Notes: generated by a model from the letters alone, not told the origin. A stretch of 40,339 nucleotides of DNA from Ignavibacteria bacterium (GCA_041694835.1 JBGFRZ010000010.1:1-40339), one strand, 5' to 3'; numbered from the stretch's first letter, positions 1 to 34,152 are shown. Program-made: numbers and translations.

Positions 1-2
1 CC

Positions 3-3000
3 TCTTCAGAGTTTGTAGTTGCTCCATCGCTTAATCGCTCCATCGCTCAATCGCTGTATTACTGGCGAGTCCGCGCCCGGGACAACGCTGGTAATTTTTC
101 CCTATACCCTACCCCCTATACCCTAATCGTCGACACAACACCACCTCCTGCGGTAAATGTGTTGACATCGCCGTTAAATGGTATGGCTACAAATCAACTG
201 ACGCTCAATTTCACCTGGTCGACTGTAACAGACACTCCCGCTGGTGTCCGAAACTATATATTGCAGTTATCTACCGCTAGTGACTTCAGTGTCTTGAGTT
301 ATTCCTCATACACCATCGCTTCATCGCTCAATCTCTCCATCGCTCAATCTTCATACACCTGGCGGGTTAATGTTCAAGACAACGCATTAAATTACACAAC
401 CTCAACGGTGAGATGGACAGTGGTGGTTGACACGACGCCCCCGTCGGCGCCATCTCTGACGGCGCCGTTAGACGGTGCGGCTACGAATCAAACGACATTG
501 ACATTCAGTTGGTCTAGTTCGGATGAGAGTGGTTTTCGCGGTGGCTCCGGCATAAACGGCTATGAGTTTTATATCTCCACCACTTCAGATTTTTCCGTCT
601 TTACCTCTTCAGAGTTTGTAGTTGCTCCATCGCTTAATCGCTCCATCGCTCAATCGCTGTATTACTGGCGAGTCCGCGCCCGGGACAACGCTGGTAATTT
701 TTCCCTATACCCTACCCCCTATACCCTGACCATTGACACAACACCACCGAGCATAGTTGATAATCAACCGGGAGATGATGTTTGGCGGCCAATGGCAGGC
801 ACACTCTATAATGTGGATTTCCACGATACAGGTTATGCCCAATCAAGGCTTTATTCCATACAGTATGCCGTTTCAACGACACCGTTTCTTGGAGCGCCTC
901 TTGTGATAAATTGGACCAACATAGTGACCCCGCCGGCAAATCTGGCTTCTTTTACAGATAACTGGTCGGTTTCGTTTGGCCCGCTCCTTGAAGTGGTTAC
1001 GAACTATGTTTCAGTAAGAGCAATGGATTTCGTTGGAAATACCTCTACTTCTACGGACATCTTTTACATAAGAAAAGATGTGTCTGACCCCGTCGTTTTA
1101 GATAATCAACCTGGCGACGATGTCTGGCGCAGAGTTGCAATGCCCGATGGCTATAATGTGGATTTTCAAGATGACGGCGGCTCACTCCTGAATTATGCTC
1201 AGTGGCGCGCTTTCAAGAACCTTGCCGACGGAACGAAGGTCTATCACACCGCATGGTATAACATATTTGTCTCGACGAATATCGCTTTGTATACAGCCGA
1301 CTGGTCTGTTGACTTTTCAACTCTCACCGAAGGAACGAACCACATAGAGGTGAGGGTTTTTGACAACGCCGCCAACCCTCTAACCATTCTAACATATCCC
1401 GCTCCGTTCTATGTAAGAAAAGACACCACCCCGCCGGTGTGTCAGGATTTTCAGACGGGCGACGACGTATGGCGAACTTCAAACACAGGACTTTACGATG
1501 TGCAATTTGTCGACGCTTTAAGCGGTTCAGGGATTCAAAAATTTGAAGTTATTGCATCAACAATGGCGGATGGCAATCCGCCCGCTACACCTTGGACGCT
1601 TGTTTTGACGACGAACACGCACTCTTACACCGTCCCGTGGTCCCTACCCGCTTCCGTGTGGGATGCTTTGCCGTCAGGGCCGCAGAGGAATTTTATTTCC
1701 TGCCGAGCAATGGATTTTGCGTTCAACACATCAACTGTTTTGACGGATGCTTTTTATGTTATGAAAGACACTGTTCCACCGAGAATAGTTGATAATCAGG
1801 ATGGCGACGCTCCCTGGCGCCGATTCGGCGGAACGGTTTATGATGTTGACTTTTACGACTACGAATCCTTGCTTCGCGGTGCGCAGTATATCTCAAGAAA
1901 TGGTCCAAATCCGACGGATACCCCATGGGGTCTCGGCTGGGTCAGTATTTTCGGTTCAACAGGAACTCCGTCTCATACAACCGACTGGTCGGTGGATTTT
2001 ACAAATCTCCCCGAGGGCGCCAATTACATATTTGTCAGGTCCTCGGACACGGCGGGTTTACAGAGTGAGCCGTCTGTTGCGGTGTTTTATGTCAGAAAAG
2101 ACATCACTACTCCCGCAATAGTTGATAACCAGGATGGCGACTTCGCCTGGCGCTCAACTTCAGGCACTCTTTATGGAGTGTTTTTTCAGGATGCAATATC
2201 AGGTGTTACGACGGCACAGTATCAGATAAGAGACCCGTCAAACGCTATTCTTGTTGACTGGACAAGTATATTTGGGGGCACCACTGGCTTTATTAACTAC
2301 AACTCTTCGTGGAGCATTTCGTCTGTGGCGTTTAACTCCCTTTCAGAAGGAACTACGAATTTCGTTTATGTCAGATGCAATGACAATGCCGGCAATTCGC
2401 TTACACTTGGTGCAGCCGCGTTTTTCATACTTAAAGACACCACCCCGCCTTTTTGTGTTGTAAATCAAAATTATTACGAATCCACCCACGGCGACTGGTT
2501 TGTTGATGTCGACTTCTTTGACCCCCCGACACCCGGAAGAGTGCCCGGCGGCTCAAGATTAAACTACGCTCAGTATAAAATTCATACTCTGCCAAATGAG
2601 GGCGGTGAGACAAGAAAACCCTGGACGAATATTAGCGGATTTACATCCGGCACTACTTTTTATGTTGATGGCTGGAAAATTGACTTTTCTGCCTTACCTA
2701 TTGGAACGACCTGTTATGCATCAGTAAGAGTTGTTGACCTTGCGGGTATTACATCTACCTGGATAGATGCCTTCCGTGTTTTAAGAACCACGCCAACAGC
2801 GCCGATTATAACAGACAATCAGCCGGGCGACTACGGGTGGTATAATTCTTCGGCTACTTTTTTGCAGCAGTTCTACGACGTTGATTTTGCTGTCGGACAA
2901 GACGCATTTCTCTCTACAATGAGCGTGATTGTTCGCAGCGGCATTCTTGGCGCGGGTGTTCTAGTCGTCGGCGAAACCATAGTCATATCGACGGCAAATG

Positions 3001-6000
3001 TTGCCGCTTTTACCGCCAACTGGCGGGTTATACCTTCGACATTTTCTCCCGACCACTACATATGGGATTTATTAAGAGAAGGAACGAATTATGTAACCGT
3101 TAGGGCATATGATACATTGGGCAGTAGTTCCTCGCTAACCGATGTGTTTTTTGTTAGAAAAGATACAACTTCACCACCAGTGCCTGTGTTATCTTCACCA
3201 TTAAATAATTCTGCTACAAACCAGTTATCAGTAAACTTTTCATGGAATCCGTCAGTGGACCTTACCTCCGGCACTTCGTTTTACACATTGCAAATATCAA
3301 CTGATATAAACTTTGGAGCGATTTATTATTCAACCCAGTCACGAGTCACCAGCCACCAGTCACCAACATTGCCTCAGTCAACTTATTATTGGCGCGTCAA
3401 TGCCATTGACAATGCCTCTAACTACTCCCTATACCCTACCCCCTATACCCTGATTGTTGACACAACTCCACCGACAGTTTCAAACCCGACTTTGCCAGCA
3501 AATGGCACAATCACTAATTCTAACTCTATAAACTTTCAATGGACTTCTGCAACTGATGCTTTCTCCGGACTCAAGCACTACACATTACAAATCTCCACTG
3601 ACATAAACTTCGGAGCGATTTATTATTCAACCCGGTCACCTTCCACCAGTCACCAGCCACCAGTATTGCCTCAATCAACATACTACTGGCGTATTCGTAC
3701 TGAAGATAACGCCGGCAACTATCAACTATCAACTATCACCTATACACTTCTTATTGATACTACACCACCATCAGTTCCGATTTTAACAAGCCCCGTAAAT
3801 GAGCAGGCTACAAACCAAATGAATTTGACTTTTAACTGGTCTACTTCCGACGATACTGGTTTCCGTGGCGGCTCCGGCATAAACGGCTATGAGTTTTATA
3901 TCTCCACAACTTCGGATTTTTCCGTCTTTATCTCTTCGGAGTTTGTAGTTACTCCATCGCTTAATCGCTCCATCGCTCAATCGCTGTATTATTGGCGGGT
4001 CCGTTCCCTTGACAATGCTTTTAACTACTCCCTATACCCTACCCCCTATACCCTGATTGTCGATACTTCTGCGCCGAGAATTATTGACCTTCAACTGGGT
4101 GATGACCAGTGGCGAAATAACCCCGGAACAACTTACAATGTTGACTTTGAAGATACTCTTTCACGGCTTCATACCCTGCAGTATACGGTATTCTCCACTG
4201 CCGACCAAACAGGCCAGCCCATAATAGGATGGACAAACATCGCAGCGAATATAAATGCCGAAACTTTCATTACGGATTGGACGATTGATTTTGCCGCATT
4301 GCCCGAGAATACAACTTGCCATGTTTCCGTCAGGGCCTGGGACAATCTTTTACAATATACAACTTCCTTCAATGTGTTTTATGCGCTCAGAGATGTCACA
4401 AGACCCATAATAACCGACAATCAACCTGGCGATGACGTCTGGAGGCGGGCAAATACCGGTTTATACAATGTTCTTTTTGATGATGATGGCGGCGCTCGTC
4501 TTAGAAATTTTCAAACAAGGGTTATGTCCGGTGCGCTTGGTTCAGGTGCGACAATACAGGACTGGACTGTCTCCGACACTATAATTTCCGGCGCTACTTT
4601 TTTCAACATACCATGGCCGCTGAATTCCACGACATGGAGTTTAATGCCCGAAGGAAAATCTCACATTTCAGTGCGCCTGTTGGATAATTCCTGGTCGCCT
4701 ACACTTGGATATAACACAGATTCTTTAACAGATGCATTCTATGTCTTAAAGGATACTACCGTGCCGACGATTGTAAACAATCAATCGGGCGATGTCGCCT
4801 GGAGAAATTCAAATTACGCGACTTACAATGTTGACTTTATGGACGCTGTCTCCGGTTCAGGTATTCAAAAATTTGAAGTTCTTGCATCAACAATGGCGGA
4901 TGGCAATCCGCCCGTTACACCCTGGACGGTTGTTTTGACGACGAACACTCATAGTTATACGTCGGACTGGACGCTTCCGCAGAGCGTCTGGGACGCTCTT
5001 TTGACAGATGCGACAAATTACATATCCATTCGCGTCTTTGATTTTGCAGGCAATGTTTCAACAATGACGAATGCGTTTTTTGTTTTGAAGGACGCTCTTG
5101 CGCCGTTTGTCAACAATCTTCAAGATGGCGACAATATATGGCGCCGCCTGAACGACGGAGTTTACAACTTGGATTTCTTTGATACGGGCGGCTCTCGCCT
5201 GAATAAATTCCAAATCCGCGCTTCAACCATTGGCTACGGCTTCTTGCCTTTTGTCTTTGATTGGTCTGACAGCGGAACAACCATCTCCGGGACGACTTTT
5301 TACACAGACAACTGGTCACTGCTCACTGCTCACTGGTCACTTCTTCCGTCAGGCACAAACTATATTTCGGTAAGAGCGTTTGATTTTGCAGGTTCAACTT
5401 TTACCGTCACCGTCGGATTTTATGTTTTAAAAGACACTGAGCCGCCGACGGGACTCGCCAACGCTCCGTCTCATTCTTCAACTACAACCTTCAACGTTCC
5501 ATATTCGGCGCAGGACTTTGGTTTTTCAGGTATCAATTTTGTCAAACTTTACTATACTTTGCAGACGGTGTCGCCCTTTACATGGACACATTATATAACT
5601 ACGACGACAAATCCGATTTCATTTACCGCGCCGCAGGAAGGGACGCACGGATTTAGAATTGTTGCCTATGACCGCGCTGGCAACACCGACGAAGCCGACC
5701 CGCCGCCATCTGCAACACCTCCCGAGTCGTCAACGCTTCTTGACATCACGCCTCCAACGGTAAACGACCAGCAGGCGGGAGACGACGTTTGGCGAAATTT
5801 TGCAAAACCTGACGGTTATGCAGTATACTTTAACGACACCGGCTCCGGGCTTGACACGGCGCAGTATATAATCCGCGAGACGGCCGACCCCGCAAGCCCC
5901 ACCCTTAAAGGGTGGACTACCATATTTTCGTCGGCGTCGCAAAATATCACTTCATATAATGAAAAATGGCAGATTGATTTTGATGCCTGTAAGTCATCGT

Positions 6001-9000
6001 GGAGTTATGTCTCTGCGCGCGTCTGGGATATAGTGGGAAGAACAACTACAGTCAACAATGTCTTCTGGGTAAAGAAAGATATTGCACCAGCGGTTATTTC
6101 ACATAACGAATTCGCTGAGGGCGGCGACAATACCTGGCGAAATGTCGCACGCGCTGGAGGCTATGATGTAGATTTCTTCGACGGGCTTTCAGAACTCTCA
6201 AGAGCAGAGTACGCAGTCCACAGCTCATCGGTAGTGGGGGGATTGATTCCCCCCTACATTGTGGACTGGACAGACATAGCGACCGCAATTTCTTCCACGA
6301 ACTATACGACAAACTGGTCTGTCAGTTTCACCCCGCTTCTTGAAGCCGCAACAAACTTCGTCCATGTGCGGCTTACGGATATAGCGGAAAATGTCTCAAC
6401 TTATTACGCTTTTTATATCCTAAAGGACACTACTACACCTACCGTCGCCAATAATGAAGTCGGACAGGACCCCGTCTGGCGCGCGGCTTCAAGAAACTAC
6501 GACATCGATTTCTTTGATTACAAGTCACGGCTTGACGCGATTCAATACAGAGCGTTTATTTCTACCGGCGGACTTAACCCCATTACGACATACTGGCAGG
6601 ATATTGTTCCAGCGCCGCTTGCCTCCTCTGAATACACCGCGAATTTTACACTTAACTTTGAACTTCTTCAAAATGGAACAAACTATATCGCCGTGCGCTC
6701 GCGTGATATCGCCGGAAACACTACGACGCAGTTTGATTTATTCAGAGTCCTTCGCGACAATGTTCCACCGACAATCGTGGACAACCAGCCGGGTGACGAT
6801 GTCTGGCGTGCGTCAAATGTGGCGACTTACGATGTAGATTTTGTTGACACGCTTTCAGGCGTTACAACTGCCCAATACAGAATTTATCCGTCTCCGTCTA
6901 TGGGCGGAACACCGCTGACGGCTTGGACGACCATTTACCTCGGCACCGCTGTTTCAACTTATTCCACAAACTGGCAACTGGCACCTGCCGACTGGGCGGC
7001 TATCCCCGAGGGAGTCAGCTATGTCTCTGTCCGCTGTTTTGACCTTGTTGGTAACACTTCAACCCATGTAGATGCCTTCTATGTCAGAAAAGACACAACC
7101 ACTCCGACAATAGTTGACAACGAACCAGATGACGAAACATGGTATAACAGCGGACGAAATTACGATGTGGATTTTCACGATTACTCGTCGTTGCTGAACA
7201 ATGCCGAGTATAGCGCATTTGCCGGCGGTTATCAAACAGGCGGAGTCGTTATTCCATGGACGGCGCTATTTAACAACTTAAACTCATCTTCCTATGTAAG
7301 CGACTGGCCGGTGAATTTTGGTGCCTTGAATCAGGGATACAACTATATCTCAGTCAGAGCATATGACAACGTTGGCAATGTCCGAACAGCGGACGTTTTC
7401 TATGTCAAAAAAGACACCGCTCCGCCGTCACAAATCACGAATCTTAATGCTACAACAGGAAACAATGAAGGCGAAATAAACCTGTCATGGACGGCCCCAT
7501 CCGCCCCTTCGCCAGGAAGCGGGACAAGTCGGTATATTGTAAAGTTTGCCACCTTCGTTATTACGGAATCGAATTTTGATGCCGATGCGAATGTCAGGAC
7601 ATTTTCTCAAACATGGAACCCATCTGCCGCCGGCACAACTGAAAACAAAGTTATAACCGGACTTTCGCAGGGCAGATGGTATTATATTGCAGTAAAAACC
7701 GGTGATACTGCCGGTAATGTTTCAGTTCTGGCTTTATCTAATCAAACTCAGTCAAAGACAGACACTTTTCTTCCGGGCACGATTACCAATCTTTTGGCGT
7801 CCCCTGGTGATTACATGGGTCAGGTGAACCTTTCATGGAGCGCACCTGGCGACAACGGCAACATAGGTAATCTCACAGGGACATATATTGAGGGCGACAG
7901 TTATGCCGGATGGTATCGCCTCAGGCACTGGGAAAACATAAACCCCGGAAGTAATTTTGATACAGGGGGATATGTAGAAATCAATAACCCATTTTCACCC
8001 GCTCCCGTCGGTTCAATTGAGAATTTCACATTGGGCGGATTAAATCATAGTTCAACTTATTTTTTTATAGTAAGAACATTTGACAAAGCGAGTAATTTTT
8101 CTACTTCCAACTCAACATCTTCTATGCCATCTCCTCCTGGGGCTGCGAAAGGTCATATCTTATGGGGTTCAGAGACTTCAAATGTGCCAAGAGGAGCTCT
8201 GTGGGAGCCACCGAGCTGGGGTGCTGCCGGAACTCTACCAACCGTCACTTTTCCGACGGGTCATAGATTTGAATTTGTTAGAGTCGCTGCCTGCCAGACA
8301 TTAAGAAATGAAAAACTTACGCTTTTCAAAACCGGTGATGGTGATGCAACGCTTGAAGCATTAGGTAATGTATATTTACAACGTTGGACTGGAACCACCT
8401 GGGAATATATAGACCGACTGAATACAACAGTAAACAACATGCGAGATACCGTTCGCGATTGCGATTTAGCATACGAGCAGACATCAGGCAGGTGTCTTAT
8501 CGCTTACAACAATGGCACAGCGGGACAACTCACATATCGTGTGTGGTCATCAACTGCCGGAACCTGGTCAATAGGACCTACTAACCTTATACTTACCGGT
8601 GTGACAGGTGCGGTTAACTGGGTGCGATTAGAACCGCGACCTAATTCAAATCAAATAATGTTAGCGACGCTTGATGCAAATTCAGACATTTTCTGTGCAC
8701 TATGGGATGGCGATACAAACTCATTCTTGTCCATGTCTACATATGTCCCCACAGTTTCCGCCGCTATTGCCACAAGAGAATGTTTTGATTTAGCCTGGGA
8801 GACACAAAACGAAAGATGTATGCTCCTCTGGGGCGAAGGAACGGCGACGAGATATTCACTGTGGTCGTCGACAGCAAATCGGTGGGTAGTTCAGAATGGA
8901 CCAGGTTCACCGAACATAGCCGCTACTGCGAACTGGCTCAGCCTTGCTGCGGACCCAAGAAGCAATTCAAACTATATAGGAATGACATCCATAGACGGCT

Positions 9001-12000
9001 CCCTTGACTGGAATGTTTCTATATGGAGTGGGACTTCATGGGGCGCTCTGCCTGCTGAAGACCCAACAATGGAAACGAACGCTTCCCGCCCAACTGATAT
9101 TGCCTGGGAAAAAGATTCCGGTAGATGCATAATAGTTGCCGGTGATTTGGATGCAAGAGAAATCTCATTTATCGGCTGGTCGGAAGTGTTAGGTTGGCAT
9201 AACCCGATAACGGGTGCGGCGACCACACCATCAGTAGCGCCGAAAACACCAACAGGGACTTTAGGTCTTTTAGGTGATATAAACTGGCTCGGACTTGTTG
9301 CAGATCCGAACCAAAACAAAATGATTTGTTACATAATTGACCAGGCAGCTGACTTAACTACAATCAACTGGACTGGTGCTGGATGGTCAGGTAAAAAAAT
9401 CCATGAATTAACCGTTGCAATTGCAACAAGAGAATGTGCATCGTTAGCACTTGACAGACACGACATAGTTCCACCGACATATACCGATAACCAACCCGGG
9501 GATGACACATGGAGGGTTTCAAATACAGGCAGTTATAATGTTTCATTCAACGATACCGGTGGCTCATATCTTAGAAACTTTCAGATAAGGGCTACAACAG
9601 GAACCGCTTTGACATCTCCGGTAATCCTTGATTGGACAAATAATCTGACATTCCCTGCCCAAACAAACTCTTATACCACACCTTGGGCACTTACTTCCGT
9701 CGTATGGGACAATCTAAGGGATGGGCTTAATTATGTGCATATAAGGGTTTTTGATGGCGTCGGAAACACTGCGACGGGTGAAAATGTCTTTTATGTCAGA
9801 AAAGATACAACCCCGCCAACCATTCCCATATTGTCAGCACCGTTAGACGGTGCGACTACAAATCAGACAATTATAAATTTCTCATGGAGTTCCTCTTCCG
9901 ATTTAACTTCGGGAGTCAACGGCTATGAGTTTTATATCTCCACAACTTCGGATTTTTCCGTCTTTACCTCTTCGGAGTTTGTGGTTACTCCATCGCTTAA
10001 TCGCTCCATCGCTCAATCGCTGTATTATTGGCGCGTCCGCACCCGAGACAACGCTGGCAATTTTTCAACGTGGAGTTCAACGCGCTCCGTGCTGATAGAC
10101 ACTGTCATCCCACGAATTGTCAATAATGTTTCAGGCGATTTTATCTGGCGAAATTCGTCAGGCACACCTTATGATGTCAGATTTTACGACGAACTCTCAC
10201 GGCTTGCAACCGCTTACTATCGCGTCTGGACTTCAACCGGTCAGATGGGAACACGACTTGTTGACTGGACGAACATAAATTCTTTGTTGATAAATGCAAC
10301 TTACTATGAAACCAACTGGTCAATCCCGGCATCTTCCTGGGCACTGCTACAAAACGGCACTAACTTTGTGACCGTTAGAGTTGATGATTTGGCAGGAAAT
10401 ACTTCTACCTGGGTTGATGCGTTTTTCATTAGAAAAGACGAGCTCTCGCCGCCGGTTCCGTCTCTGACTGCACCGTTAGACGGTGCGGCTACAAATCAGA
10501 CAACACTGACTTTCAGTTGGTCCGCTGTCTCAGATGAGAACTCAGGAGTTGGCGGCTATGAGTTTTATATCTCCACAACTTCAAATTTTTCCGTCTTTAC
10601 CTCTTCGGAGTTTGTAGTTACTCCATCGCTCAATCGCTCCATCGCTCAATCGCTGTATTACTGGCGAGTCCGCGCCCGAGACAACGCTGGTAATTTTTCC
10701 CTATACCCTACACCCTATACCCTAATTGTTGACACTGCACCGCCGACAATACCGTCTCTAATTTCACCTTCAAGCGGCACTGTTACAAACATTCAACAGC
10801 CAGCTTTTGATTGGACTGATTCAACAGACACCTCGGGAATTTCAAATTACGAATTCCAGATTTCAACCGATGTAAACTTCGCGGTTTTAACCGACCAATC
10901 TCTCCCCGCCACATCTTACTTTCTACCTTCTACCTTCTACCCGTCCACCTTATATTACTGGAGAGTCCGCGCTCAAGATGTCGCCGTCAATTTCTCTACC
11001 TTTACCTCTATCTTTACCTTAATCGTCGACACCGCGACTCCGCGGATAATGAACTATGAATCAGGCGGCGATTTGGTGTGGAGAAATATGATTAAGCCGG
11101 GCGGATACAATATTGATTTTGACGATATCGGGCTTGCAAAGATAAATAATATCCAGTATAAAGTCCACACCCTACCGTCTGAAGGCGGAAGCATACTGGT
11201 GACATGGGAGACGATTAGAAGCACATTTCCGCCGTATACCACATTGTTTGCACCGCCGCTGAACCTGTTGTCCTGGACAACGGATTTTGGCGTCAATTAT
11301 GACCTGCTTCAAAACGGAACAAATTATGTCTCTATGCGTGTAAGCGACCTTGCAGGGAACACTTCTACATGGGTTGATGTGTTTAGAATTTTGCGAGACA
11401 TTATACCGCCGACAGTAAACGACATGCAGACGGGTGATTTCGCATGGCGAAGTTCGTCGGGAACGACTTACGCCGTTTATTTCAACGATACCGGCGACTC
11501 GCTGCTTTCCAAATTCCAAATTTCTGTCTCTACTAATCCCTATCCCCTATCCCCTATCCCCTCTGTTTTTGATTGGACGGATAGAATAACCGGCATCAAC
11601 GCACCGTCATACACAACGCCCTGGCCGCTGAGTGCCGCGCAGTTTGCAACACTTCCCGACGGAGCATCAAGTTATGTCTCCGTACGCTGCTTTGATTTGG
11701 CAGGCAATACGACGACATTCTCCGATGCGTTTTTCATTCTGAAAGACACAGTAGCGCCTTTTTGCGTCAATAACGAAACTACCGACCGCGGATGGCTCAC
11801 TTCAAATCCGGGGGCGATCTGGGACATAGATTTCTACGACCCGCTTTCTGCTTTTACTCCGGGCGGCTCAAAATTAAACAACATATTCTATCGGGCGAAG
11901 TCGTCCACGGGCGGTATAATAATTGATTGGAATGCAATCGCAACATCTCAAAATACGACTTTCTATATAACGAATTTTTCTGTTAATTACGACGGCTTAT

Positions 12001-15000
12001 ATGACGGAATAAACTATGTAGATGTTCTTGCAAATGATTTTGCAGGCAATGCAACCACTTATATAAATGCTTTTACGGTTAAAAAAGACACCACATCGCC
12101 GAGGATTGAAGTGGCTTTTGACACGACCACAGTCAACTGGGTCAATACCTCACAGGTCTATGATATTAATTTTTACAAGCGCGGCGCAACTGACCTGCAT
12201 ACAATACAATATACTGTCTGGACAGGACCCAACAGAACAGGAACAAATAAAATACCCGGCGATGGCACCTGGAGCAATATCGGCACGCCCCCGCTTAATG
12301 TTTCTGAATATACAACTGATTGGCCGGTAGTTTTTGCCGACCTTACTAACGGGGGGACTAACTTTGTCTCGGTCAGATGTTGGAATGTAGCAGGTGCGAC
12401 ATCCACAATAATTGATACTTTCAGAATCTTCAAAGATGTGACAAATCCGTCAATAATAGATAATGTTCCGGGTGATGATACTATCTGGCGCTCGTCAAAT
12501 GTTGCCGCCTATAATGTTGACTTTTTTGACTCACCCGGTCCACCACAGACGGGCTCGCTGTTGAGTAAATTTCAATTAAAGATAACTTCCGGGACAAATC
12601 AAACTGGACTGTTATATCAGGACTGGACGGACGAAAAACTTAATATCGCTTCAACTTTTTATGTTATTGATTGGCCGCTGAATTGGTCCGCATGGCTCAA
12701 TTTACGCGAAGGGAGAAATTATATCTCTGCAAAGGCATTTGACAATGCAAGTAATGTTTATGAACTCTCAGATATTTTCTTTGTATTGAAAGATACAACT
12801 TCACCGACGATAAACGACCAGCAGACAGGTGATGATAATTGGCGACGGCTTAATATAAGTTCATACAGCGTTTATTTCGCTGACACCGGCGGCAGTAGAT
12901 TATCCCGATTTGAAATTTCCGCTTCTACTACCCCCTACCCCCTATCCCCTACCCCCTTAATTGGTTGGACCACCGTTCAATCAGGTATAAACGTTGAAAC
13001 TTTTGTTTCCAGCTGGTCGTTACCTTCTTCCGTCTGGGCTGCATTGCAATCCTGGACAACAAACTACATTTTCGTCCGTGTTTTTGATAATTCCGTCCCC
13101 GGAAATTCATCTACAACTGCAAATTCTGTATTCTATGTCTTGAAAGACACCGTCCCACCGAGAATAATTGACAATGAAACAATTGACCGTGGTTGGTTTG
13201 CCTCTAATCCAGGCGCTATCTGGGATATTGATTTTGAAGACCGCCTGCCTGAACATTGCTCAAAACTTGAGACGGCGCAATGGACTGCATTTACCTCACC
13301 TAACCAAAGTGGCTCGCAGGTTGTCGGCTGGACAAATATTTTTACAAATTTAGGGACAACAAATTGGACAACAAACTGGGACCTGGGACTAACAACATGG
13401 ACACTACTTGCCTCTGGAACTAACTTTATATGTGTTCGTGTCTGGGATATTGCCGGGTCAACAGAAACATTATCAGATGTATTTATCGTCAAAAAAGATA
13501 CTTTTGGTCCGACGATAATTGATAATCAACCCGGGTATGATACCTGGTTGGCTGCTGACCCCGGGTCAATCTGGAATGTTGACTTCAAAGATGAACTATC
13601 AAAACTTGCAAGTGCGTATTACAGAATTTCTACACAGCCAAATTTGACCGGGACAATACTGACTCCCTGGACAACTATATTTGCTACTTACGGTTCACAA
13701 CTTACGACTTACGATTCTAACTGGCCGCTGGCTCCAAACCACTGGACACTTTTACCCGAGGGCACTTCATACATTACCGTGACCGCATATGATAACCTGA
13801 ACAACCAGACGACATTTTTTGATGTATTTCATATCCGTAAAGACACAACAACTCCATACTGTGTGGATAATCAACCAAACATTTTTGCAGATACACAGGA
13901 TGACTTATCAAATATAGATATTGATTTTTATGATAGAGGCGGGTCAAAAATAAATTATGTTAGATATACTGTTAGACCATCAGCGGGTTTACCGCCGGAG
14001 TTTATTATCAACTGGAAGAATATCCCCGGTATTGCTGATGGATTAAATACAACATACTATATCACTAACTGGTCAATTACAGAAGCATGGCCATCACTGC
14101 CGAACAATGCAACAAGTTATGTATCAGTTAGAGTAGTTGACTTTGCAGAGCATACCACAACTTTTGTAGATGCATTTTTGGTCTATAAATCTGCTATTGG
14201 ACCAACAATAACTGATAATGTAAATGAAGCACTCCTACCTTACTATAATACACTTGTTAATGCATATTTTGATGTTGACTTCCAGTCAAATTCCGGTGCA
14301 AACCTCACTTATTTTGAAATAAAAGTTACTACGGGTCCATCAGAAACAGGTGCAACTATAACTGACTGGTACAAGGTCGCAGATATAAATGCAATTACTT
14401 ATACTACCGACTGGCAAATTGCAGAGTCAACATTTAACGCGATGTGGCAAGGTTTAAATTATGTCCATGTGAAAGTTCGCGATGCTGTACCAACACAAGC
14501 ACAATTAAACAATGTCTTCTATATCAAGAAAGATACCGCACCACCACTAATTGATGACTTTCAGGCTGATGCAACATTTTATGCTCGCACAGCAGGAACG
14601 AAATATAATGTTGATTTCCGTGACCTCGGTATAGGAGTTGCTACAGGACAATATCTTGTCTCATATTCTTCAACCAATATATTAGGGACGGTCCTTATTT
14701 CCTGGACTACAATTTTTGCTCTCTCTCCACAATCGTCTTATACTACCGACTGGGAAGTAGATTTTGCAGCATTGCAGGAATGGTGTACGAACTATGTCTC
14801 AGTGAGATGTTACGACGGCTTCGGATATCTTACAACTTCCTATGCGGTATTTTCTGTCTGGAAAGATACTACGGCGCCAACAGTTCCATCGTTGACTTTG
14901 CCGTCGGAAAATGCGCTATTGAGCGCTCAATTAGTGAACTTTAACTGGTCCGCCTCTGCCGATACTCGTTCAGGAGTTGATAATTACACTCTGCAAATTT

Positions 15001-18000
15001 CTACTTTGGCAGATTTTGGTCTGATAAATCAGACGACTACGACTACCCAATTAAATTGGTCCGCTACATTGACCGATGGCAGATACTGGTGGCGTGTCCG
15101 AGCAAAAGATATTGCAGGCAATCTATCTGTATTCTCGTCCACAAGAACATTTTTGATTGACACTTCTTCACCGACAATCGTTGATAATCAACCCGGGTAC
15201 GAACTATGGCTATCGTCAGACCCGGGCAGCATATGGGATGTTGATTTCAAAGATATCGGTTCAGGACTTACAACTGCGGAATATAGAATTTGTTCTCAAC
15301 CGGGTAATACTGCGGTTTTAATCAACTGGACAACTATATACGCCGGTGTGGCAATTTCAAGTTATACTACAAACTGGTCACTGGCTACCGGTCATTGGTC
15401 ATTGCTACCGCAGGGGACAAGTTATATTTCAGTTAGATGTTTTGATATGGTCGGACTTTCTACAACATCTGCGGATGTGTTCTACATCAGAAAAGATACT
15501 TCACCCCCGACAATTTCAGGTGTTGATTCCGTCGGCAATACAGATACAACCTGGAGAAATGCTTCAAAACCCGGTGGCTACGATTTGAACTTCCACGACC
15601 CACACTCGCTGTTAAGAGATGCCTGGTATTGCGTATCTACAAATACTCTCGCCACACCGCCACTTGTGATTTCATGGACAGCGATATTTACCGAGCAAAA
15701 CACCGCTGACTTCCTGACTAATTGGTCGCCATCATTTGCACTACTACTTGAAGGTGTAACAAACTATGTTTCAGTCCGGGTGCAGGATAATTTACTACAA
15801 ACCGCAACTTATTATGACAGATTTTTTATCTTAAAAGATGTGACGAAACCAACAATATCCAACAATATGGGAGCAGGGAGTGATTCTGTCTGGCGAAATA
15901 CCACCCCGGGAGCAATTTACGATGTTGATTTTCGCGATGCGGGTGGTTCAAGGTTGTCTAAATTCCTGACGAAGGCGATGACAGGCACACTTATTACAGG
16001 AACAACCGTTTATGACTGGACTGACAACACTGATTTGTCATCGCAAAACACTACATTTTATCTGACAAACTGGTCATTAAACTTTGACGCACTTCGTGAA
16101 GGCAGAAATTATATATCGGTTAGAACTTCTGATACAGCGGGAAACTTTGAGACGCTTACAGACGCATTCTTCGTCCAGAAAGATACGACAACACCGACAC
16201 TCATCAAAAATCCGACATGGGACGAAAACCGCTGGTATGCAGAACCACCAACAGTGGATGTTGACTTTACAGATGCCATTTCAGGCTCAGGCGTCAGTGG
16301 TTTTGATGTGAGGACGACTACTCAAAGCAGCGCCTCGCCGACCGCGTGGCAGACCGCATGGGTTACGGTTGTAACCACTAACACACACTCATATACACCG
16401 AACTGGCCTGTACCGCAATCAGTTTTCGACGCGATGATTCACGGAACAACAAATTACTGCTGGGTAAGAGCATATGATTTTGCTGCTAATACAACTACTC
16501 CTGGCGCTTATACATTCATCGTGAAAAAAGATACTGCCGGGGTAAGTATTGTAGACGGTGAAGTTATTGGGCAGGATATTGTCTGGCGAAATAATCCGTC
16601 GGAAAGAGCATACAATATTGACTTCTTTGCACTCGGTGAATCAAAATTGCAATCTGCAGAATATACCGCCTGGACAGGTCCAAACTGGACAGGTTCACAA
16701 AAATTTACATGGACAACTATTCCCGGCTTTGTCCCGGGCATAACTCAATATACTGCGGATTGGCAAATTGGCTCAACAGAGTTTACTCAACTGCTTGATG
16801 GCTCAACAAACTATATATCAGTCAGATGCTGGAATACCGCAGGGACTACCGTCACTTTAGCAGATGTATTTTTTGTGAAAAAAGATACAACGCCACCATC
16901 AATTCCTATGTTATCCTCTCCTTTAAATGCTTCAGCGACCAATCAGTTAAATGTCAATTTTGCTTGGCTTGCTTCTGGCGACCTTGCTTCAGGAACTTCA
17001 TCATATACATTGCAAATTTCAACACATTCAGATTTCAGTTTTGTCCATTATTCAACCATTACACCTTACACCTTCCACCTTTCACCTGCGTTGTCACAGA
17101 CAACGCACTACTGGCGAGTTCTCGCTCTCGACAACGCTGGTAATTTTTCCCTATACCCTACACCCTATACCCTAATCATTGATACTACTCCGCCGTCAGC
17201 ACCATCACTTGTTGGACCAATAAACGGGTTTGCTACAAATTATGTAACTATTTCTTTCGATTGGACAACTGTTGTTGACTCAGGCCCTGCCGGACTATCT
17301 CACTATAAGATTGATATTTCATCAGTTGCTGGTTTTATGCCACTTTGGTATTCAAGTTCAGTTGTCTCTAACTCACTAACTTACTTACTCACTAACTCAC
17401 TGACTTATTACTGGAGAGTTGCTTCTGTTGATAGGGCAAATAATTTTAGTATATATCAGTCAACATATAGTCTAATAGTTGATACAATTTCACCGTCAAT
17501 GCCAATTCTATCAACACCAATAGACAATTACGCAACAAACCAGATGATGCTAACTTTCACCTGGTCAGGAGTAGATATCGGTCCTGCTGGAATAAAAGAA
17601 TACGAACTACAAATTTCAACTGACCAAAACTTTACTATGTTGAATTACAGTTCTACAACTACTTCTCAATCTCTTAATCTCTTAATCTCTCAATCTCTCT
17701 ACTGGTGGAGAGTTATCTCACAAGACCGTGCAGGAAATTTATCGTTATACTCATCAACAAGAACTTTCGTAGTTGATATTTCATCGCCACCAGCAACATC
17801 GCTGTTATCACCGGCAAATGATACACGGACAAATTCAACTTCTATAACATTTCAGTGGAGTGCGGTTTCAGATATCGGCCCTGCAGGATTGAAAAATTAC
17901 GAACTACAAATTTCAACTGACCAAAACTTTACTATGTTGAATTACAGTTCTACAACTACTTCTCAATCTCTTAATCTCTTAATCTCTCAATCTCTCTACT

Positions 18001-21000
18001 GGTGGCGGGTTAAAACTATTGACCGTGCAGGGAATTATAGAATTTCTACATCATCAGAAATAACAGTTGATGTTACACTCCCCTCAGTAAAAGATAATCA
18101 ACTTGGTGATGATGTATGGCGCGCTGTTGGAACTACTTCGTATGATATCGATTTCTTTGATACTCCGTCAGTGAATGGTGCAGGGTTAGGTTATGCACAA
18201 TACATTGTATATCCATCAACAAATCCTGACGGAACTGCCTCAGGAACTGCACTAACATCATGGCAAACAATTTTCAACTGGTCATTGCCGACAAGGACAA
18301 CATATTATACAGACAACTGGGGTCTATCACCTGTATGGGGTAGTCTGCAACAGGGGTATAATTTTGTATTTGTCCGTGCATATGATATGGCAACTAACAC
18401 AACGGATTATACTACATTCGTTTTCTATGTGAAGAAAGACACTGCACCACCAACTATTATCAATAACGAACCTTCAATTCCGCCGTGGGAGTCATCACCA
18501 CGCAGTCATAATGTTGATTTTCAAGACACTGGCTCAGGTGTAAAAGTTTCATCTTATACTGCCTGGACACAACCGAACAACACAGGAACAAATGTAGTTT
18601 CATGGACAACGATTTTTGATACTTCCCCTGCTGTTGGTTTATGGTCAGACGACTGGTTGCTGAATTTTGGTTTACTATCACCGGGAACAAATTATATCTC
18701 AGTGCGCTCAGCAGATGCTCTTGGCAATGTTGCAAATAGTACAGATACATTTAGAGTTCTTAAAGATACTATACCGCCAGCAAATATTACAAATTTAACT
18801 TCAGCACAAGCAAGCACAGCGGGCTCTGTGCAGCTACAATGGACTGCACCGTCAGATGATACTATTTGTGACCCCGGGAATATCCGACTGAAATATTATC
18901 TACTGAAATATAAAACATCACCATTTACAACTACATCCGATTTCCTTTCAACAGGAACAACATTTTATCTACCTTTCTTGCCCGCTCCACCCGGAACAAC
19001 AGAAACTGGAACGGTTACAGGCCTTATTGAAGGAACAACTTACTGGATCGGTATATTGCCACAGGATAAGGCAAACAATTATAGTGTTGCTGTTTCAACT
19101 ACAGCCAACTGGGCAACAAGAGTTCCACCCGCCCGGATTACCACTTTAATAGGAACAGCACCGGAGGAGTTAAACCCGGGTGAAGTCCACCTGACATGGC
19201 TCGCCGTCGGTGACGATGGCACTACGGGTACTGCGAGCGGGTATGAACTTAAATATGCAACTTATGCATTTACAGAAGCAGCTTGGGGGACTGTATCAAC
19301 TTTTGCACAGAGCTGGATTCCTGTTTCTGCAGGAATAACTGAGACCAAAACACTTTCAATGCCAGCAGTCGGTACAACATATTACTTCGCTATAAAAGCA
19401 TACGACGATGCTTCGCCGCCGGCAAATTACTCTGTTATGTCAAATACCGTTTCTGTCCAATCACGACCGACGGGACCCGCAGACGGTATCTTAACATTTG
19501 TATATCAAACTGCTGCCGCACCGAAATATAGAACCGTAAGTGCGGCAGGTGCAGGTTTTGGTTCAACCCTCGATGCTCAGTCATCGGTCGGGACAATCCG
19601 CTGGACTATCCTTCGTTCCTGTCCGTTTGTTAGAGATGAAAAAATCCTTGGATTACAGTCAGGCGGTGGAACAGAGCCCGACGGACGACTCTATTTGCAG
19701 AGGTGGGATGGACAGACGGGAACATGGGGCTCAATGGGCTCCATAACACCGGCAACACAACTGAATTCAACAAAATACGATTCACGCTACCGTGCATTTG
19801 ATATTGCTTATGAGCAGACATCAGGTAGAGCAATGGTTGTTTTCTTTAATGGAGTTGCCAGTCAGGTTGTCTATCATATCTGGTCATCAACAGCACAGGC
19901 ATGGAGTGTGTATGGCTCTACAATTACACTTGGTGTCACAGGGACAATAAGATGGGTCAGGCTTGAACCACAGATGGGCTCTGACAGAATAATGTTAACT
20001 TGTCTTGATTCAACAAACAATGACTTATATTCTATCTGCTGGAACGGTTCTTCATGGGTTGATGGTAATGTAAATACTGCCGCTACTGCGGTAAATGCAT
20101 TTCAATGTTTTGATGTTGCATGGGAATTGACTTCAGGCAGGTGCATCGTTCTGTGGGGAGAAGGAACTGCGACACAATATAAAATATATACTCCCGGAAC
20201 TGGTTGGGGCGGAGCAACTGCCGGACCTAACCCCGCTGCAACAGTGAACTGGATAAAACTTGCCTCCGATAGACTCTCGGGAAGCAACCGCATCGGCGCA
20301 TCTATACTTGACGCTTCAGCCGCTCCCAATGACTGGTGGGTTTCTATATGGAACGGCTCGACGTGGGGAAGTACCTCGGAAATTTCAGCGAGCATGGATG
20401 CGGCAACCCAACGGCTCGTGGATATCGCATGGGAAAAAGATACCGGTAAATGTTTGGTCGTCGGAGTTCTGAGCGCCGCACCGGCGCAGTCGTTGAGTTA
20501 TGCCCGCTGGTCAGCCGCAACCGGCGCATGGAACGACCCCGCCTTAACAACACTTTCCGGCGCCGAAAATAACCTCGGCAACTCGGTTGACTTAAGATGG
20601 CTGCAACTCGTGCCTGACCCCAACTCAAACAAAATGATTGTTATCGGTATAAATGCGAACACAGCAAATAACGCTTCGGTCCGAACCCAGAACTGGTCGG
20701 GTACCGCATGGTCGGCTGTTACCGCGCACACTGCACTTGCACCGTCAGGAACTTATGAATGCGCGTTTCTTACACTTGACAGACACGATACAATCGCTCC
20801 GACTTTCGCGAACAACCAGTCGGGCGACGACACATGGCGCAACACGAACAGCGGTTTTTACAATGTTGACTTCTTTGACACGGGCGGTTCCCGATTATCG
20901 GTGGTTCAGGCGCGGCTTGCAACGGGCGCAGGTGGTGCCGGTGTCTATAGGGATTACACGAATGAACTTGTCGCTCTCAACACGGATTCATATACCGCGG

Positions 21001-24671: not shown

Positions 24672-24690
24672 TACATTAGAGGATAGAGAG

Positions 24691-27402: not shown

Positions 27403-29123
27403 GATTGTTGAATAAAATTTTGAGGCGGGTTATGACAGAAAACAGAGTTCGGAAAATAGTTCAAGGGTTCAAGAGTTCAAGAGTTCAAGAGTTAAAGGGT
27501 TTGAAACCCCACAACTATCTAACTCCCAAACTTCCCAACTCTTTCGCGGCCACCGGCTCTTACCTATTTACTATTTACTATTTGCTATTCGCTATTTGCT
27601 ACCTACTACCACCCTACCTTTTTTCTGCGCAGATTCATCCCAATGCGGGCACTACATCGGCAACGTTTCTAAAACTTCCTGTGGGCGCCCGGGCAGCTTC
27701 TCTATCAGGTTATATAGGGGGTGCGTCGGGTCCTTCTGCTATATATTGGAATCCGGCGGGGCTGGCGGATACAAGATCCAGCGAGTTTGAATTTTCACAC
27801 ACCGGGCACTTTCAGGAGATAAAACACGACTTCGTTGGATACATCCATCCGCTTAAAAAAGGAGCAGTTGGCTTTGGACTAATTTCTCTTTATGCTGGTG
27901 GTATCGAAGGAAGAAGCGGAGTGCTCGATTCTGATGAAAGATATGTCAATCTATATCAGGTGACAATGCCCGAATATCGCTACAGCGTCTCGGATATTGC
28001 GCCTAAGGTGGCTTATGCAGGAAAAATGAACAGCGATATTTCCCTCGGCGGTAATTTTAAGTTTATCCATCAAAGAATAGAGAATAACTCCGGGTATACA
28101 TTTGCAGCGGATTTTGGCGCTATATATAAACTCAATGAAGAAATTCGACTTGGCGCTGTTTTGAAAAATATAGGTCCTGGCATAAAATTTGTGGAAAAAT
28201 TTTATATATTGCCAATGGAACTTGGCGCTGGACTTTTGTACCAGAACAAAAAATTCGGTGTTTCGCTTGATGCTGTTCAGCCAATAGACAACTATTTAAT
28301 AACTTCTCTGGGTTTTGAGTATTCGCCAATTGTTCATCTTTCATTGCGCGGTGGTTATAGATATCGGCTTTATGGTTGGAGATTGGGAAATTATGCGGGG
28401 GTTTCTTGCGGCTTCGGAATAAATTTTTACGGAACAAAAATAGACTATGCTCTAAGCTCATACGGCGATCTTGGTCTTTCGCACAGGTTTTCAGTTGGGG
28501 TTGAGTTTGCTCAAGTTGGAGGTCTGTATAAATTTTTAAGAGAGACCATAGGCTTGAGACAAAGGTCTGATGAGCGAAAAAAGAATGAAGAAAAGCCCGA
28601 AGTTTTAAGACCATTGCCGCTAAAGTTGGAAGAAAAAGGCGAACAAAATCTTGTCTCTTTATCGATGCCACGCGTTTTTTACAGTTATATCGCCGATATA
28701 AAACTTTCAAATGTAGATACGATAAATAAAATTTTTACATATAATGTTTCGGTTTCAACAACTCCCGACGGGGAACCACCTTTGTCTATGTTAAAAGGTA
28801 GAATAACGACCAGAAAAAGCCTCAATGACATAAAAACAACAGGATTTATCGTTGGAGTTTCAACGCAAGCATTTCGGATTGAGGATGAAGATGTAATGAA
28901 ACTCATAGAATTTGGTGAAGTTTTTGACCAGAAAATAATGTCTGCCGAGGTTTATATCAGCCCGTCAACAGACTCTCGTGATGTCAATATATATTCTTTT
29001 GAAAATGACGAACCTAAAAAGTTGAGTTATGAAAAAGTAGTGTTATCCATTGACGAGAAACCATTATATAAGATAATGCTTGAGAAAGCCGAAAAAATTG
29101 CCATAACCTTGAAAACAAAGTAA
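27399..29123 (+). CDS. PorV/PorQ-family outer-membrane beta-barrel protein with C-terminal extension
   Basis: Motifs 'FLKLPVGARAASL...SAIYWNPAGLA', 'GAVLKNIG', 'LSLRGGY' and 'IDYA..SYGDLG.SHRFS' are typical of PorV/PorQ-like proteins. The start is either TTG 27399 (overlapping the upstream TGA) or ATG 27432. Confidence 0.82.
   Translation: MRLLNKILRRVMTENRVRKIVQGFKSSRVQELKGLKPHNYLTPKLPNSFAATGSYLFTIYYLLFAICYLLPPYLFSAQIHPNAGTTSATFLKLPVGARAASLSGYIGGASGPSAIYWNPAGLADTRSSEFEFSHTGHFQEIKHDFVGYIHPLKKGAVGFGLISLYAGGIEGRSGVLDSDERYVNLYQVTMPEYRYSVSDIAPKVAYAGKMNSDISLGGNFKFIHQRIENNSGYTFAADFGAIYKLNEEIRLGAVLKNIGPGIKFVEKFYILPMELGAGLLYQNKKFGVSLDAVQPIDNYLITSLGFEYSPIVHLSLRGGYRYRLYGWRLGNYAGVSCGFGINFYGTKIDYALSSYGDLGLSHRFSVGVEFAQVGGLYKFLRETIGLRQRSDERKKNEEKPEVLRPLPLKLEEKGEQNLVSLSMPRVFYSYIADIKLSNVDTINKIFTYNVSVSTTPDGEPPLSMLKGRITTRKSLNDIKTTGFIVGVSTQAFRIEDEDVMKLIEFGEVFDQKIMSAEVYISPSTDSRDVNIYSFENDEPKKLSYEKVVLSIDEKPLYKIMLEKAEKIAITLKTK
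27459..27605 (+). repeat. Octamer (GTTCAAGR) and heptamer (CTATTTR) arrays in the 5' end of the PorV-like gene
   Basis: GTTCAAGR-type x5 at 27459-27498, AACTCCCA-like units at 27505-27536, CTATTTA/CTATTTG/CTATTCG units at 27564-27605. Confidence 0.88.
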
Positions 29124-32705: not shown

Positions 32706-32735
32706 TTTATCATTTTAATGGCCTCCTGATATTAG

Positions 32736-32830
32736 TGCACAAGGCACAAGGCACAAGGGCACAAGTGCATAAGTCATCTGTCATCCATCATCCGTCATTC
32801 GTCATTTCCGCACACTATTCGCTATTTGCT
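32736..32830 (+). repeat. GCACAAG / (C)GTCAT / CTATTCG tandem arrays downstream of queA
   Basis: gcacaag-gcacaag-gcacaagg-gcacaagt-gcataagt ... ctattcg-ctatttg. Confidence 0.8.
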
Positions 32831-33928: not shown

Positions 33929-33946
33929 TTATACTGAATAGCAAAT

Positions 33947-34144
33947 AGCGAATAGCGGATAGAGATGAGAGAGCAGAGGTGAGAGATGAGAGAATAGCGA
34001 ATAGTGGATGGTGGCTGGTGACTGGAGGAAACGAGCCACGAACCACGAGCCACCGCTGCTCTGCTGCCCTGACTTGTGCTCTTATGCACTTGTGCTCTTG
34101 TGCCTTGTGCTCTTGTGCCCTTGTACCTTGTGCACTTGTGCTCT
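33947..34144 (-). repeat. Composite tandem-array repeat, copy 2 (upstream of queA)
   Basis: The reverse complement matches 24716-24869, differing mainly in unit copy number. Confidence 0.9.
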
Positions 34145-34152
34145 TGCTTTTT

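Follow-up and report, generated by a model that had tools for sequence, protein, structure and literature searches.

In a 40,339-nt stretch of DNA from an Ignavibacteria bacterium (GCA_041694835.1, JBGFRZ010000010.1), which forms an entire contig (C66) and is referred to here as the window, a giant open reading frame (ORF) was found to contain 14 repeated immunoglobulin (Ig)-like modules, of which 13 carried an in-frame tandem array of 7- or 8-nt units at one slot, followed by the presence of arrays at a second slot further downstream in the module. The periodicity was located at the level of DNA, the arrays left the length of the module unchanged and were rare in orthologues, their units were filtered against stop codons and shared with other loci of the genome, and identical tracts in diverged modules show gene conversion. 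As the explanation, a genome-wide process that generates 7/8-nt arrays and overwrites tolerant edge-strand segments in place, followed by the spread of the arrays by conversion, is given a little better than an even chance. The genome that holds the window, designated G000, comprises 1.9 Mb in 89 contigs and is 97.2% complete.

3-24671, plus strand: giant ORF of 8,222 codons with an open 5′ end.

The modules are FN3/PKD-like, contain about 100 residues each and were found by 14 [YHT][YWT]WR[VI] motifs, which close the central part of the module; the first module is truncated by the contig start. Immediately upstream of the Y-Y-W-R-V strand, 13 of the 14 modules were found by Tandem Repeats Finder (TRF) to contain a 20-38-nt array of 7- or 8-nt units, with 3.6-4.8 units in each and all 13 arrays in frame. 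The original prediction had placed such arrays in one slot of 13 of the 14 modules, and this observation is confirmed, an array being returned by TRF at every coordinate claimed. The features of this slot (slot 1) were as follows.

26-55 (TRF 21-55), plus strand: type A octamer, NNATCGCT x4, PSLNRSIAQSL, in the partial first module (TRF, lag scan).
314-349 (TRF 313-349), plus strand: mixed A/F octamers, CATCGCT / CAATCTCT (TRF, lag scan, shuffles).
629-658 (TRF 624-658), plus strand: type A octamer (TRF, lag scan, shuffles).
3337-3365 (TRF 3335-3365), plus strand: type B heptamer, CAGTCAC-type, QSRVTSHQSP (TRF, lag scan, shuffles).
3635-3664 (TRF 3635/3644-3664), plus strand: type B heptamer, RSPSTSHQPP, with one type-D CTTCCAC unit (TRF, lag scan).
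3956-3985 (TRF 3952-3985), plus strand: type A octamer (TRF, lag scan, shuffles).
9992-10021 (TRF 9988-10021), plus strand: type A octamer (TRF, lag scan, shuffles).
10621-10654, plus strand: type A octamer, perfect 16-nt super-unit x2 (TRF, lag scan, shuffles).
10917-10941, plus strand: type C heptamer, CTACCTT-type, SYFLPSTFY (TRF, lag scan, shuffles).
15018-15083, plus strand: slot 1 of the sole array-free module, LINQTTTTTQLNWSATLTDGR, motif at nt 15084 (shuffles).
17059-17087, plus strand: type D heptamer, TTACACC-type, ITPYTFHLSP (TRF, lag scan, shuffles).
17368-17405, plus strand: type E, CTAACTCA x5, alternatively CTNA x10 (TRF, shuffles).
17664-17699, plus strand: type F, YAATCTCT x4 (TRF), inside the 108-nt tract 17601-17708 that is identical to 17898-18005.
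17961-17996, plus strand: type F, second copy (TRF), inside 17898-18005.

Counted in residues before the motif, the octamer arrays occupied about -12 to -1, the heptamer arrays of types B and D -16 to -7 and type C -12 to -4. The same aligned columns, which had been expected for every array, were shared only in a core of about -12 to -7 that is common to all 13, the spans differing by array type. The slot peptides were alike in composition and in a loose pattern, [ST]..L..[NST]..[LI].[QND][ST]. QSRVTSHQSP, formerly given for both CAGTCAC-type arrays, is encoded by the first of them, and the second encodes RSPSTSHQPP.

Synonymous codons were drawn from the gene's own usage in 5,000 trials per module, and a shuffle of residue order served as the second null. 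The lag-7/8 score of the 13 array modules was matched in 0-10 of the 5,000 synonymous-codon shuffles and in 0-2 of the 5,000 residue-order shuffles. The module near 15030, correctly noted before as lacking an array, scored 3, which was reached by 4,146 of 5,000 shuffles. The 7/8-nt periodicity was therefore not reproduced by synonymous shuffling, a reproduction that had been named in advance as refuting the observation, and its assignment to the DNA level stands. Segments scoring at least 9 at lag 7 or 8 were also counted along the whole 24.7-kb gene, with lags 5, 10 and 11 as controls; 22 segments were found, 13 in slot 1, 3 in the second slot and 6 elsewhere, as against 0, 1 and 0 segments at the three control lags. 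When only the G000 modules were considered, slot 1 accounted for 13 and slot 2 for 3 of the lag-7/8 segments, with none at other module positions.

The second slot (slot 2) lies after a conserved N-x-S downstream of the motif and holds heptamer arrays. The repeats found there were as follows.

100-125, plus strand: heptamer, CCCTATA/CCCTACC, SLYPTPYTL (TRF, lag scan).
703-727, 3422-3451, 4025-4054, 10699-10724 and 17149-17174, plus strand: further copies of the CCCTATA/CCCTACC array (TRF).
3716-3743, plus strand: heptamer, CAACTAT x4, YQLSTITY (TRF, lag scan).
10994-11019, plus strand: 12-nt repeat x2.2, STFTSIFT (TRF).

A third, seldom used slot contained the heptamers CCCTATC/CTACCCC at 11538-11562 and 12928-12957, both at a common position that encodes PYPLSP[IT]P ahead of a conserved W. 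The host domain there is the other repeat domain of the giant protein, of the DNQxGDD..WR Ig-like type, and the CCCTATC/CTACCCC units were found also on contigs C53 and C34.

The length of slot 1 was taken as the number of residues from a conserved upstream anchor to the motif in 149 modules, 6 of which were not anchorable; one module mis-anchored by the regular expression (34 residues) was traced as an artefact and excluded. The distance was 22-24 residues in 22 array modules and 21-25 in 121 array-free modules, in agreement with the roughly conserved segment length of the original prediction, and modules of intermediate length were not seen among the anchored modules. Slot 2 was 24 residues long in all 8 array modules and in 119 of 133 array-free modules. 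Insertion by slippage is disfavoured because a gain of 7 or 8 nt shifts the frame and a gain of 21 or 24 nt adds 7 or 8 residues, and no such lengths occur; the absence of added lengths therefore points to a process of the substitution type that is templated. Outside the modules, the array in a carA-like gene (on contig C51) was length-neutral relative to 9 of 12 aligned orthologues, with Y..ST..Y.LP kept, followed by three orthologues without the segment and one with extra residues. An in-frame mobile insertion of the kind known as the Rickettsia palindromic element (RPE) was rejected, the module being equally long with and without the array and no inverted pair involving the arrays.

Two AlphaFold models were obtained, one for the array-free module and one for the type-A module 10440-10751 (50-sequence alignment), with predicted local distance difference test (pLDDT) values of 90.7 and 95.1, respectively. 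Both were predicted to contain strands at residues 9-11, 16-18, 22-27, 37-45, 53-59, 63-67 and 71-81, followed by a last strand at 91-97 in the array-free module or 93-97 in the type-A module. Foldseek matches were ColH PKD 4u6t and FN3 1x5x, 3mpc and 3pe9, with template modelling (TM) scores of 0.6-0.8, and as modelled the module is an FN3/PKD-like Ig-fold beta-sandwich. In the models, the common array core (residues 61-66) corresponds to the C′-E turn and strand E, and the octamer arrays also cover the EF loop together with the first two residues of strand F. The type-A array 10621-10654 accordingly reaches from strand E across the EF loop to the start of strand F, and residues 61-70 of that model have a pLDDT of 97. 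To the question raised earlier, whether the slot maps to one exposed strand or loop, the answer is that it is not merely one surface loop, AlphaFold placing it on the C′-E turn, strand E, the EF loop and the beginning of strand F. The second slot corresponds to the FG loop and strand G. In the FN3 topology, E and G are edge strands. The arrays thus encode segments that are modelled as ordered strands rather than floppy linkers.

A profile search with the module in 41 genomes of the class found the family in 15 genomes, including G000, at E 1e-15 or better. In the giant genes of 12 relatives 140 module hits were examined, 18 of which were without the motif and were unscored for the slot-1 counts. 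At a score of at least 9, slot-1 arrays were found in 4 of 13 modules of G002, 2 of 15 of G003, 1 of 8 of G018 and 1 of 17 of G022, and in none of G001, G004, G009, G010, G013, G015, G020 and G039. An unbiased scan of 135 modules of the relatives gave 16 lag-7/8 segments of at least 9, slot 1 accounting for 10, slot 2 for 5 and other positions for 1, and no such segment at lags 5, 10 and 11; at a threshold of 8, the slot-1 arrays were 14 of 134. The proposed comparison with homologous modules in related genomes was thereby answered, the arrays being rare there. The giant genes of G000 and G022 were found to be collinear, with 61% identity over 6,014 columns, and in 12 orthologous module pairs an array was present in 11 G000 slots versus 1 G022 slot (followed by 2 more scoring 8). 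Slot 1 was the least conserved part between orthologues, with 29-53% nucleotide identity versus 57-79% in the core. For most of the G000 arrays, all 6-8 orthologues with at least 50% context identity were non-periodic. Orthologue mappings at 45% context identity or less are paralogous in part, and rows at about 50% or more were relied on; ungapped identity columns (the upstream 90 nt and the N values), which are unreliable where indels shift the register, were unused.

At the position of module m17106 (array 17059-17087), the unit was TTACACC in G000, TAACTCC in G022 and the octamer ACCTCTCT in G002, followed by CTAACCA in G003, where the mapping is weak (45% context identity). The module mapped to the array-free module of G000 contained a clean TCAATCAC x4 array in G018, and at the type E position G018 retains a similar peptide, SLTYSLTNSLTY. 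On this comparative evidence the slot gains and loses arrays repeatedly, G000 being the extreme case, and the arrays look derived in G000. The 22 more distant FN3-like modules in other G000 proteins were found to be without an array (lag score of 6 or less); the tolerance of the fold alone is therefore insufficient, and the history within the giant gene matters. Close relatives were not found in metagenome contigs, either by a flank-anchored type-A DNA pattern or by a 401-aa four-module query, and no public sequencing run was listed as containing window positions 16800-18200.

In slot 1 of four other modules, namely 2797, 5518 and 6121 of locus L032 (G022) and 1929 of locus L040 (G004), an in-frame palindrome with 8-nt arms, encoding TQAEAC.YQ, replaces the tandem array. 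A further 60 kb of G022 DNA and the whole of G000 yielded no palindrome of this type.

The arrays were found to retain codons that are conserved in the family. The type A peptide PSLNRSIAQS has S-L-x-R in common with TTSLTRTLPEG of G004, the first 24 nt being mostly shared; TSHQSP of type B aligns with TSHSTP of G004, and type C starts at the conserved T-S-Y and type D at the conserved I-T-P. Since these ancestral codons (SL.R, TSH, TSY and ITP) are kept, the arrays are not foreign inserts. The unit types, formerly described as different microsatellite families, were found to belong in part to a single series. Each of the four units of type A is distinguished from type F by a G/T difference, with both forms mixed in the 314-349 copy. 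Types B and D align unit by unit with a common xxxCACC, and B, D and C are NCACC-type heptamers alignable by unit.

Identical runs of 108, 50, 47, 47, 40, 40 and 39 nt were found between modules that are 54-84% identical overall, and in 7 of 78 module pairs the identical run was reached by 0 of 2,000 column permutations. The modules 17484-17795 and 17781-18092 are 70% identical overall and contain the 108-nt identical tract already listed, and window positions 1-124 are identical to 604-727. A further tract carries the slot-2 array.

10680-10726 = 17130-17176, plus strand: 47-nt identical tract between modules that are 56% identical overall, carrying the slot-2 array (0 of 2,000 permutations).

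Tracts of slot 1 and slot 2 assort independently, the CCCTATA/CCCTACC array being present beside types A, B and D and absent in one type-A module. The tracts, of 39 to at least 124 nt, represent short-tract gene conversion between modules, and such conversion accounts for the type-A copies and for the paired B and F copies. The type-A paralogous copies differ by point changes, and the unit number was constant in the type-A copies and in both type-F copies.

The same kinds of array were found throughout the genome. TRF returned 2,238 rows for the 1.9 Mb, of which 800 were of period 7 and 403 of period 8, and the lengths of the period-7 arrays did not fall off evenly but formed a shoulder at 25-34 nt (144 + 152 of 770). 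Units of 5-11 nt in excess and a preference for about four units, the marks of prokaryotic long-unit simple sequence repeats, were both found in the G000 arrays. Among arrays of at least 3 units, 124 were deep in long ORFs and 376 between ORFs. The units of the deep-ORF arrays were stop-free in all frames in 113 of 124 cases on the coding strand versus 41 of 124 on the opposite strand, and the coding-strand units were poor in G (14% versus 23%). The same filter was seen inside single arrays: in type E the unit that would otherwise read TAA in frame is CTTACTCA, and in the TAACTCC array of G022 the corresponding unit is CAACTCC.

Unit families of the slots were found elsewhere in G000, the ATCGCT octamers at 8 or more other loci, the CACCAG heptamers at 11 or more and CTACCTT at 6. 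The 3337-3365 array has a 22-nt identical stretch at contig C62, and the 3635-3664 array a 19-20-nt identical stretch in dispersed array trains. Types D and E and the CAACTAT array had no match beyond 13-18 nt elsewhere in G000, and the array-free control slot had none above 13 nt. Slot units were also read in frame in other places, giving SQSLNRSIAQS in a GT4-like gene (C80), TQSLNRSITQS on C86, VTSHQPPST on C79 and HLPSTFY in the carA-like gene on C51, in which the type C unit CTACCTT is in frame.

A dispersed composite train, (GTGGCTC)n (CACCAG[TC])n (CACTATT/CGCTATT)n (ACCTCTC)n, was found at 8 or more loci (C23, C41, C49, C52 three times, C62 and C79), mostly within the first 30-270 codons of stop-to-stop ORFs, which probably places it upstream of genes or in signal-peptide regions. 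In the window, the intergenic spacers 24696-24944, 27458-27601, 32734-32805 and 33936-34218 were filled with trains of 7/8-nt arrays in succession, and (AGAGCACA)x5 (24716-24757) and (CTTGTGCT)x9.5 (34073-34146) are reverse complements of each other. The carA-like gene (C51 5943-7271, locus L073) contained a linker about 30-40 residues longer than that of its f2 relatives, with repeat-like sequence (HKAQEHKSTRAQEHRSQ...TSHQH) and a CACCAG array.

The favoured explanation would begin with a habit of the whole lineage, by which DNA patches of about 20-40 nt are turned into about four tandem units of 7 or 8 nt. Inside a gene, an array would survive only where its unit is stop-free in all three frames of the coding strand and where the protein tolerates a non-periodic peptide rich in S, T, L, P, N, Q and Y, and two places in the module would qualify, the C′-E turn, strand E and EF loop (slot 1) and the FG loop and strand G (slot 2). 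The array would replace existing codons in place, often seeded at the conserved codons of the module, with the length unchanged. Such templated substitution may proceed by out-of-register copying between neighbouring units followed by realignment, or by conversion of short patches from like arrays at other loci, started by fortuitous similarity; the latter could reconcile the retained ancestral codons with the genome-wide vocabulary of units. Short-tract conversion among the modules (39 to at least 124 nt) would then spread the array-bearing tracts until 13 of 14 slots are occupied. We infer that the mechanism is templated and length-preserving and that the arrays are tolerated rather than selected. 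The cassette-like replacement formerly proposed was partly right, in that the length is kept, short identical tracts were moved between modules and most unit types recur at unrelated loci; a dedicated cassette system, however, left no sign, reverse transcriptase, inverted arms and silent donors were not found, and ancestral codons are retained.

Several points weigh against this explanation. The overwriting is deduced and not observed, and seeding from local ancestral codons stands against unit families that are genome-wide, the two being reconciled only by assuming ectopic conversion. The strand calls of AlphaFold rest on family alignments, so that the family fold is expected whatever the slot encodes. 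Length neutrality is not universal, an identical octamer array adding 5 residues to the GT4-like gene. With about 1.4% of the coding DNA, the giant gene contained 21 of the 124 deep-ORF arrays, an enrichment that selection for variability predicts likewise. A 26-nt slot-2 array was identical in G000 and G022, yet the adjacent core is only 64-71% identical; G022 belongs to a different family, and its sampled DNA contained 29% GC. This identity is suggestive of transfer or of selection acting on either DNA or peptide, none of which is predicted by a purely neutral model. TRF rows per 100 kb were 8-42 in the sampled DNA of the relatives versus 63 in G000 and track slot occupancy only loosely, G001 having 35 rows per 100 kb yet no slot array.

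A more specific proposal is that of an undescribed, length-preserving 'periodisation', in which about 30 nt of DNA are synthesised anew, or converted, into about four copies of a 7/8-nt seed taken from its neighbourhood or from the vocabulary of the genome, and segments of the protein evolve in jumps. The proposal is put forward tentatively, as an idea that is probably incorrect. If it were true, each round would rewrite about 10 consecutive residues to a new, non-periodic peptide, since 7 and 8 are not multiples of three, and two edge strands of an Ig-like module would change stepwise with the domain length and the frame intact.

Adaptive surface variation, in which the arrays speed the change of exposed edge strands or the loss and gain of units switches the giant gene as a contingency locus, is considered improbable. 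Several residues would be altered at once by a single base change that is copied into every unit, the unit sizes are not multiples of three, and the giant protein contains a signal peptide followed by Ig-like, Lamin-tail (LTD) and propeller domains. The share of deep-ORF arrays held by the giant gene (21 of 124), the low conservation of the slot between orthologues relative to the core, and the different units of G000, G022, G002 and, with its weak mapping, G003 at the m17106 position also agree with it. However, an array contains only about four units, the type-A paralogues differ by point changes and never by unit number, all 13 arrays are in frame, and like arrays are present in housekeeping-type genes such as the carA-like gene.

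Slightly less probable still is one old array, according to which the ancestral slot was already periodic, the unit types are its descendants by concerted evolution and the array-free slots of the relatives have decayed. The single-base difference per unit among A, F and the mixed copy, and the xxxCACC core with a unit-specific C that is shared by B and D, fit such descent; CTAACT-type arrays or the peptide SLT.N..LLTT recur in G000, G003, G018 and G022, a slot-2 array is common to G000 and G022, and slot-1 scores of at least 6 were found in 18 of 134 modules of the relatives at lags 7/8 versus 5 over three control lags. Against these stand the six to eight non-periodic orthologues of most G000 arrays and the 22 distant FN3-like G000 modules without a trace of an array, and both periods occur, even at one orthologous module (7 in G000, 8 in G002). 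Differences clustered by phase are expected of any two periodic sequences; the pairwise phase-clustering permutation test, tried as a proof of common descent, was rejected as small values arise for any two sequences of the same period. Selection at the peptide level or a codon-usage artefact, by which a wanted low-complexity S/T/L/N/Q peptide merely looks periodic in DNA, is very improbable: the slot peptides are indeed alike and some contain N-x-S/T motifs, whereas both kinds of shuffle almost never reach the observed score, the control lags 5, 10 and 11 are near-empty and identical units are shared between genes.

Other candidate sources were tried and rejected. For cassette-type antigenic variation, donors with flanking homology were not found; when the slot segments were compared by BLAST with all other G000 sequence, same-unit arrays were returned (36 nt or less, 92%), the matches stopping before the module flanks, and no silent donor copies. 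For a diversity-generating retroelement, a search of the 97.2%-complete genome gave no PF00078 match, and no reverse transcriptase match was present among the window ORFs. A search for inverted pairs found no inverted arms or hairpins flanking the arrays. Loss of mismatch repair was rejected as the cause, MutS and MutL both being present. An assembly artefact is an unlikely source because the arrays are in frame within one ORF of 8,222 codons. The short tandemly repeated repetitive (STRR) heptamers of cyanobacteria belong to heterocystous, HIP1-rich hosts, and were rejected, the HIP1 octamer being without excess in G000 (15 observed versus 14.5 expected), which is therefore not cyanobacterial. 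HIP1 is a marker of cyanobacteria.

Among known systems, the nearest in kind are the heptamers of Xanthomonas (GGGAATC) and Nostoc (GGGGA(C/T)T), which in the account of Rehm et al. 2015 (PMC4692102) are dispersed, prefer four units, are mostly intergenic, G-rich and quadruplex-forming, and are under-represented on the coding strand in ORFs. By the same account, literature on repeats of 6-9 nt is scarce, and the excess of heptamers was first noticed by a 2007 survey. As far as that description goes, the G000 arrays are alike in being genome-wide dispersed 7-nt tandems of a few abundant families with about four units and a mechanism that is not known, and unlike in that G000 is also rich in 8-nt units and in that its arrays are in frame, poor in G (14%) and replace beta-strand segments length-neutrally.

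In contingency loci the tracts are long and the unit number varies between strains. The phase-variable loci described in PMC2651432 contain simple sequence repeats in coding regions of host-adapted bacteria. The G000 units likewise are not multiples of three and are found within the coding sequence of a surface protein; unlike contingency loci, the arrays have about four units, the type-A copies are equal in unit number, and like arrays occur in housekeeping-type genes. Tandem domains of bacterial surface proteins undergo concerted evolution by intragenic gene conversion or recombination, and the G000 modules resemble them in being mosaic, with short identical tracts between diverged copies, whereas the G000 tracts carry microsatellite arrays and the two slots assort independently.

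Coding repeats of Borg elements have units divisible by three. According to PMC9879509, tandem repeats of Borg elements create new disordered regions in proteins. On that description, the genome-wide tendency to tandem repeats that are tolerated in ORFs and evolve fast is common to both, but Borg repeats add length and disorder, whereas the 7/8-nt units of G000 give a non-periodic peptide of constant length in a segment modelled as ordered strands. Rickettsia palindromic elements are palindromic mobile-element insertions present in frame in genes; the G000 arrays are similar as a selfish or neutral DNA-level element read in frame at tolerant sites of proteins, and differ in being without inverted arms or added length. 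Templated mutagenesis, in which imperfect direct repeats misalign transiently, is known from phage T4 and from work on polymerase fidelity as a rare source of complex mutations. In it neighbouring imperfect repeats are made alike by simultaneous substitutions at constant length, to which the G000 arrays may be compared by analogy of outcome only, and it is not known to give rise to four-unit arrays across a genome. The open-access literature that was searched contained no Ig-like module described as carrying 7/8-nt arrays in frame and without a change in length, and the two fixed structural slots, the length neutrality, the strand-encoding arrays, the spread by conversion and the vocabulary shared with other genes are considered new.

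The giant ORF was found to contain Pfam matches to Big_13, SusE, Ig_Rha78A_N, fn3, LTD and a PQQ-propeller. The 3′ end of contig C48 (11901-11962) is identical to window positions 1-62, a 62-nt exact overlap, and C48 carries 812 codons in a reading frame that opens with a typical signal peptide (start MKKNFALIIIGFCLPLTVC...). The overlap suggests that the giant ORF extends upstream onto C48, a join that, if correct, would add about 775 residues and the signal peptide, and the complete protein probably contains about 9,000 residues; the join and the order of the modules are uncertain because the contig break falls within a repeated type-A tract. The product of the next ORF, 24655-27402, is a BamB/PQQ-like propeller protein that weakly matches a type IX secretion C-terminal sorting domain (E 2e-4, under the Pfam cut-off). 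The train 24696-24944 overlaps its annotated start, and the real start is probably downstream.

An excess of heptanucleotide repeats in some bacteria has long been known, though not its mechanism, and has been discussed chiefly for intergenic DNA. The giant gene offers a natural experiment, with 14 paralogous copies of a small, well-modelled domain and collinear orthologues in a dozen genomes. Its arrays are found at two defined structural places, where codons appear to be replaced and not added and ordered strands, as modelled, are encoded, followed by movement between modules by conversion; the placement of the arrays, the replacement of codons, the coding of strands and the spread by conversion therefore constrain the mechanism towards templated substitution. 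Homology-based alignment and tests of selection on array-bearing genes call for caution. The arrays may benefit the cell, for example through surface variation, or may simply be tolerated. The arrays may represent a route by which a purely DNA-level process remodels ten residues of a folded protein at once, and, should the rewriting still take place, uncultured bacteria with small genomes would have in it a new source of rapid variation at their surface.

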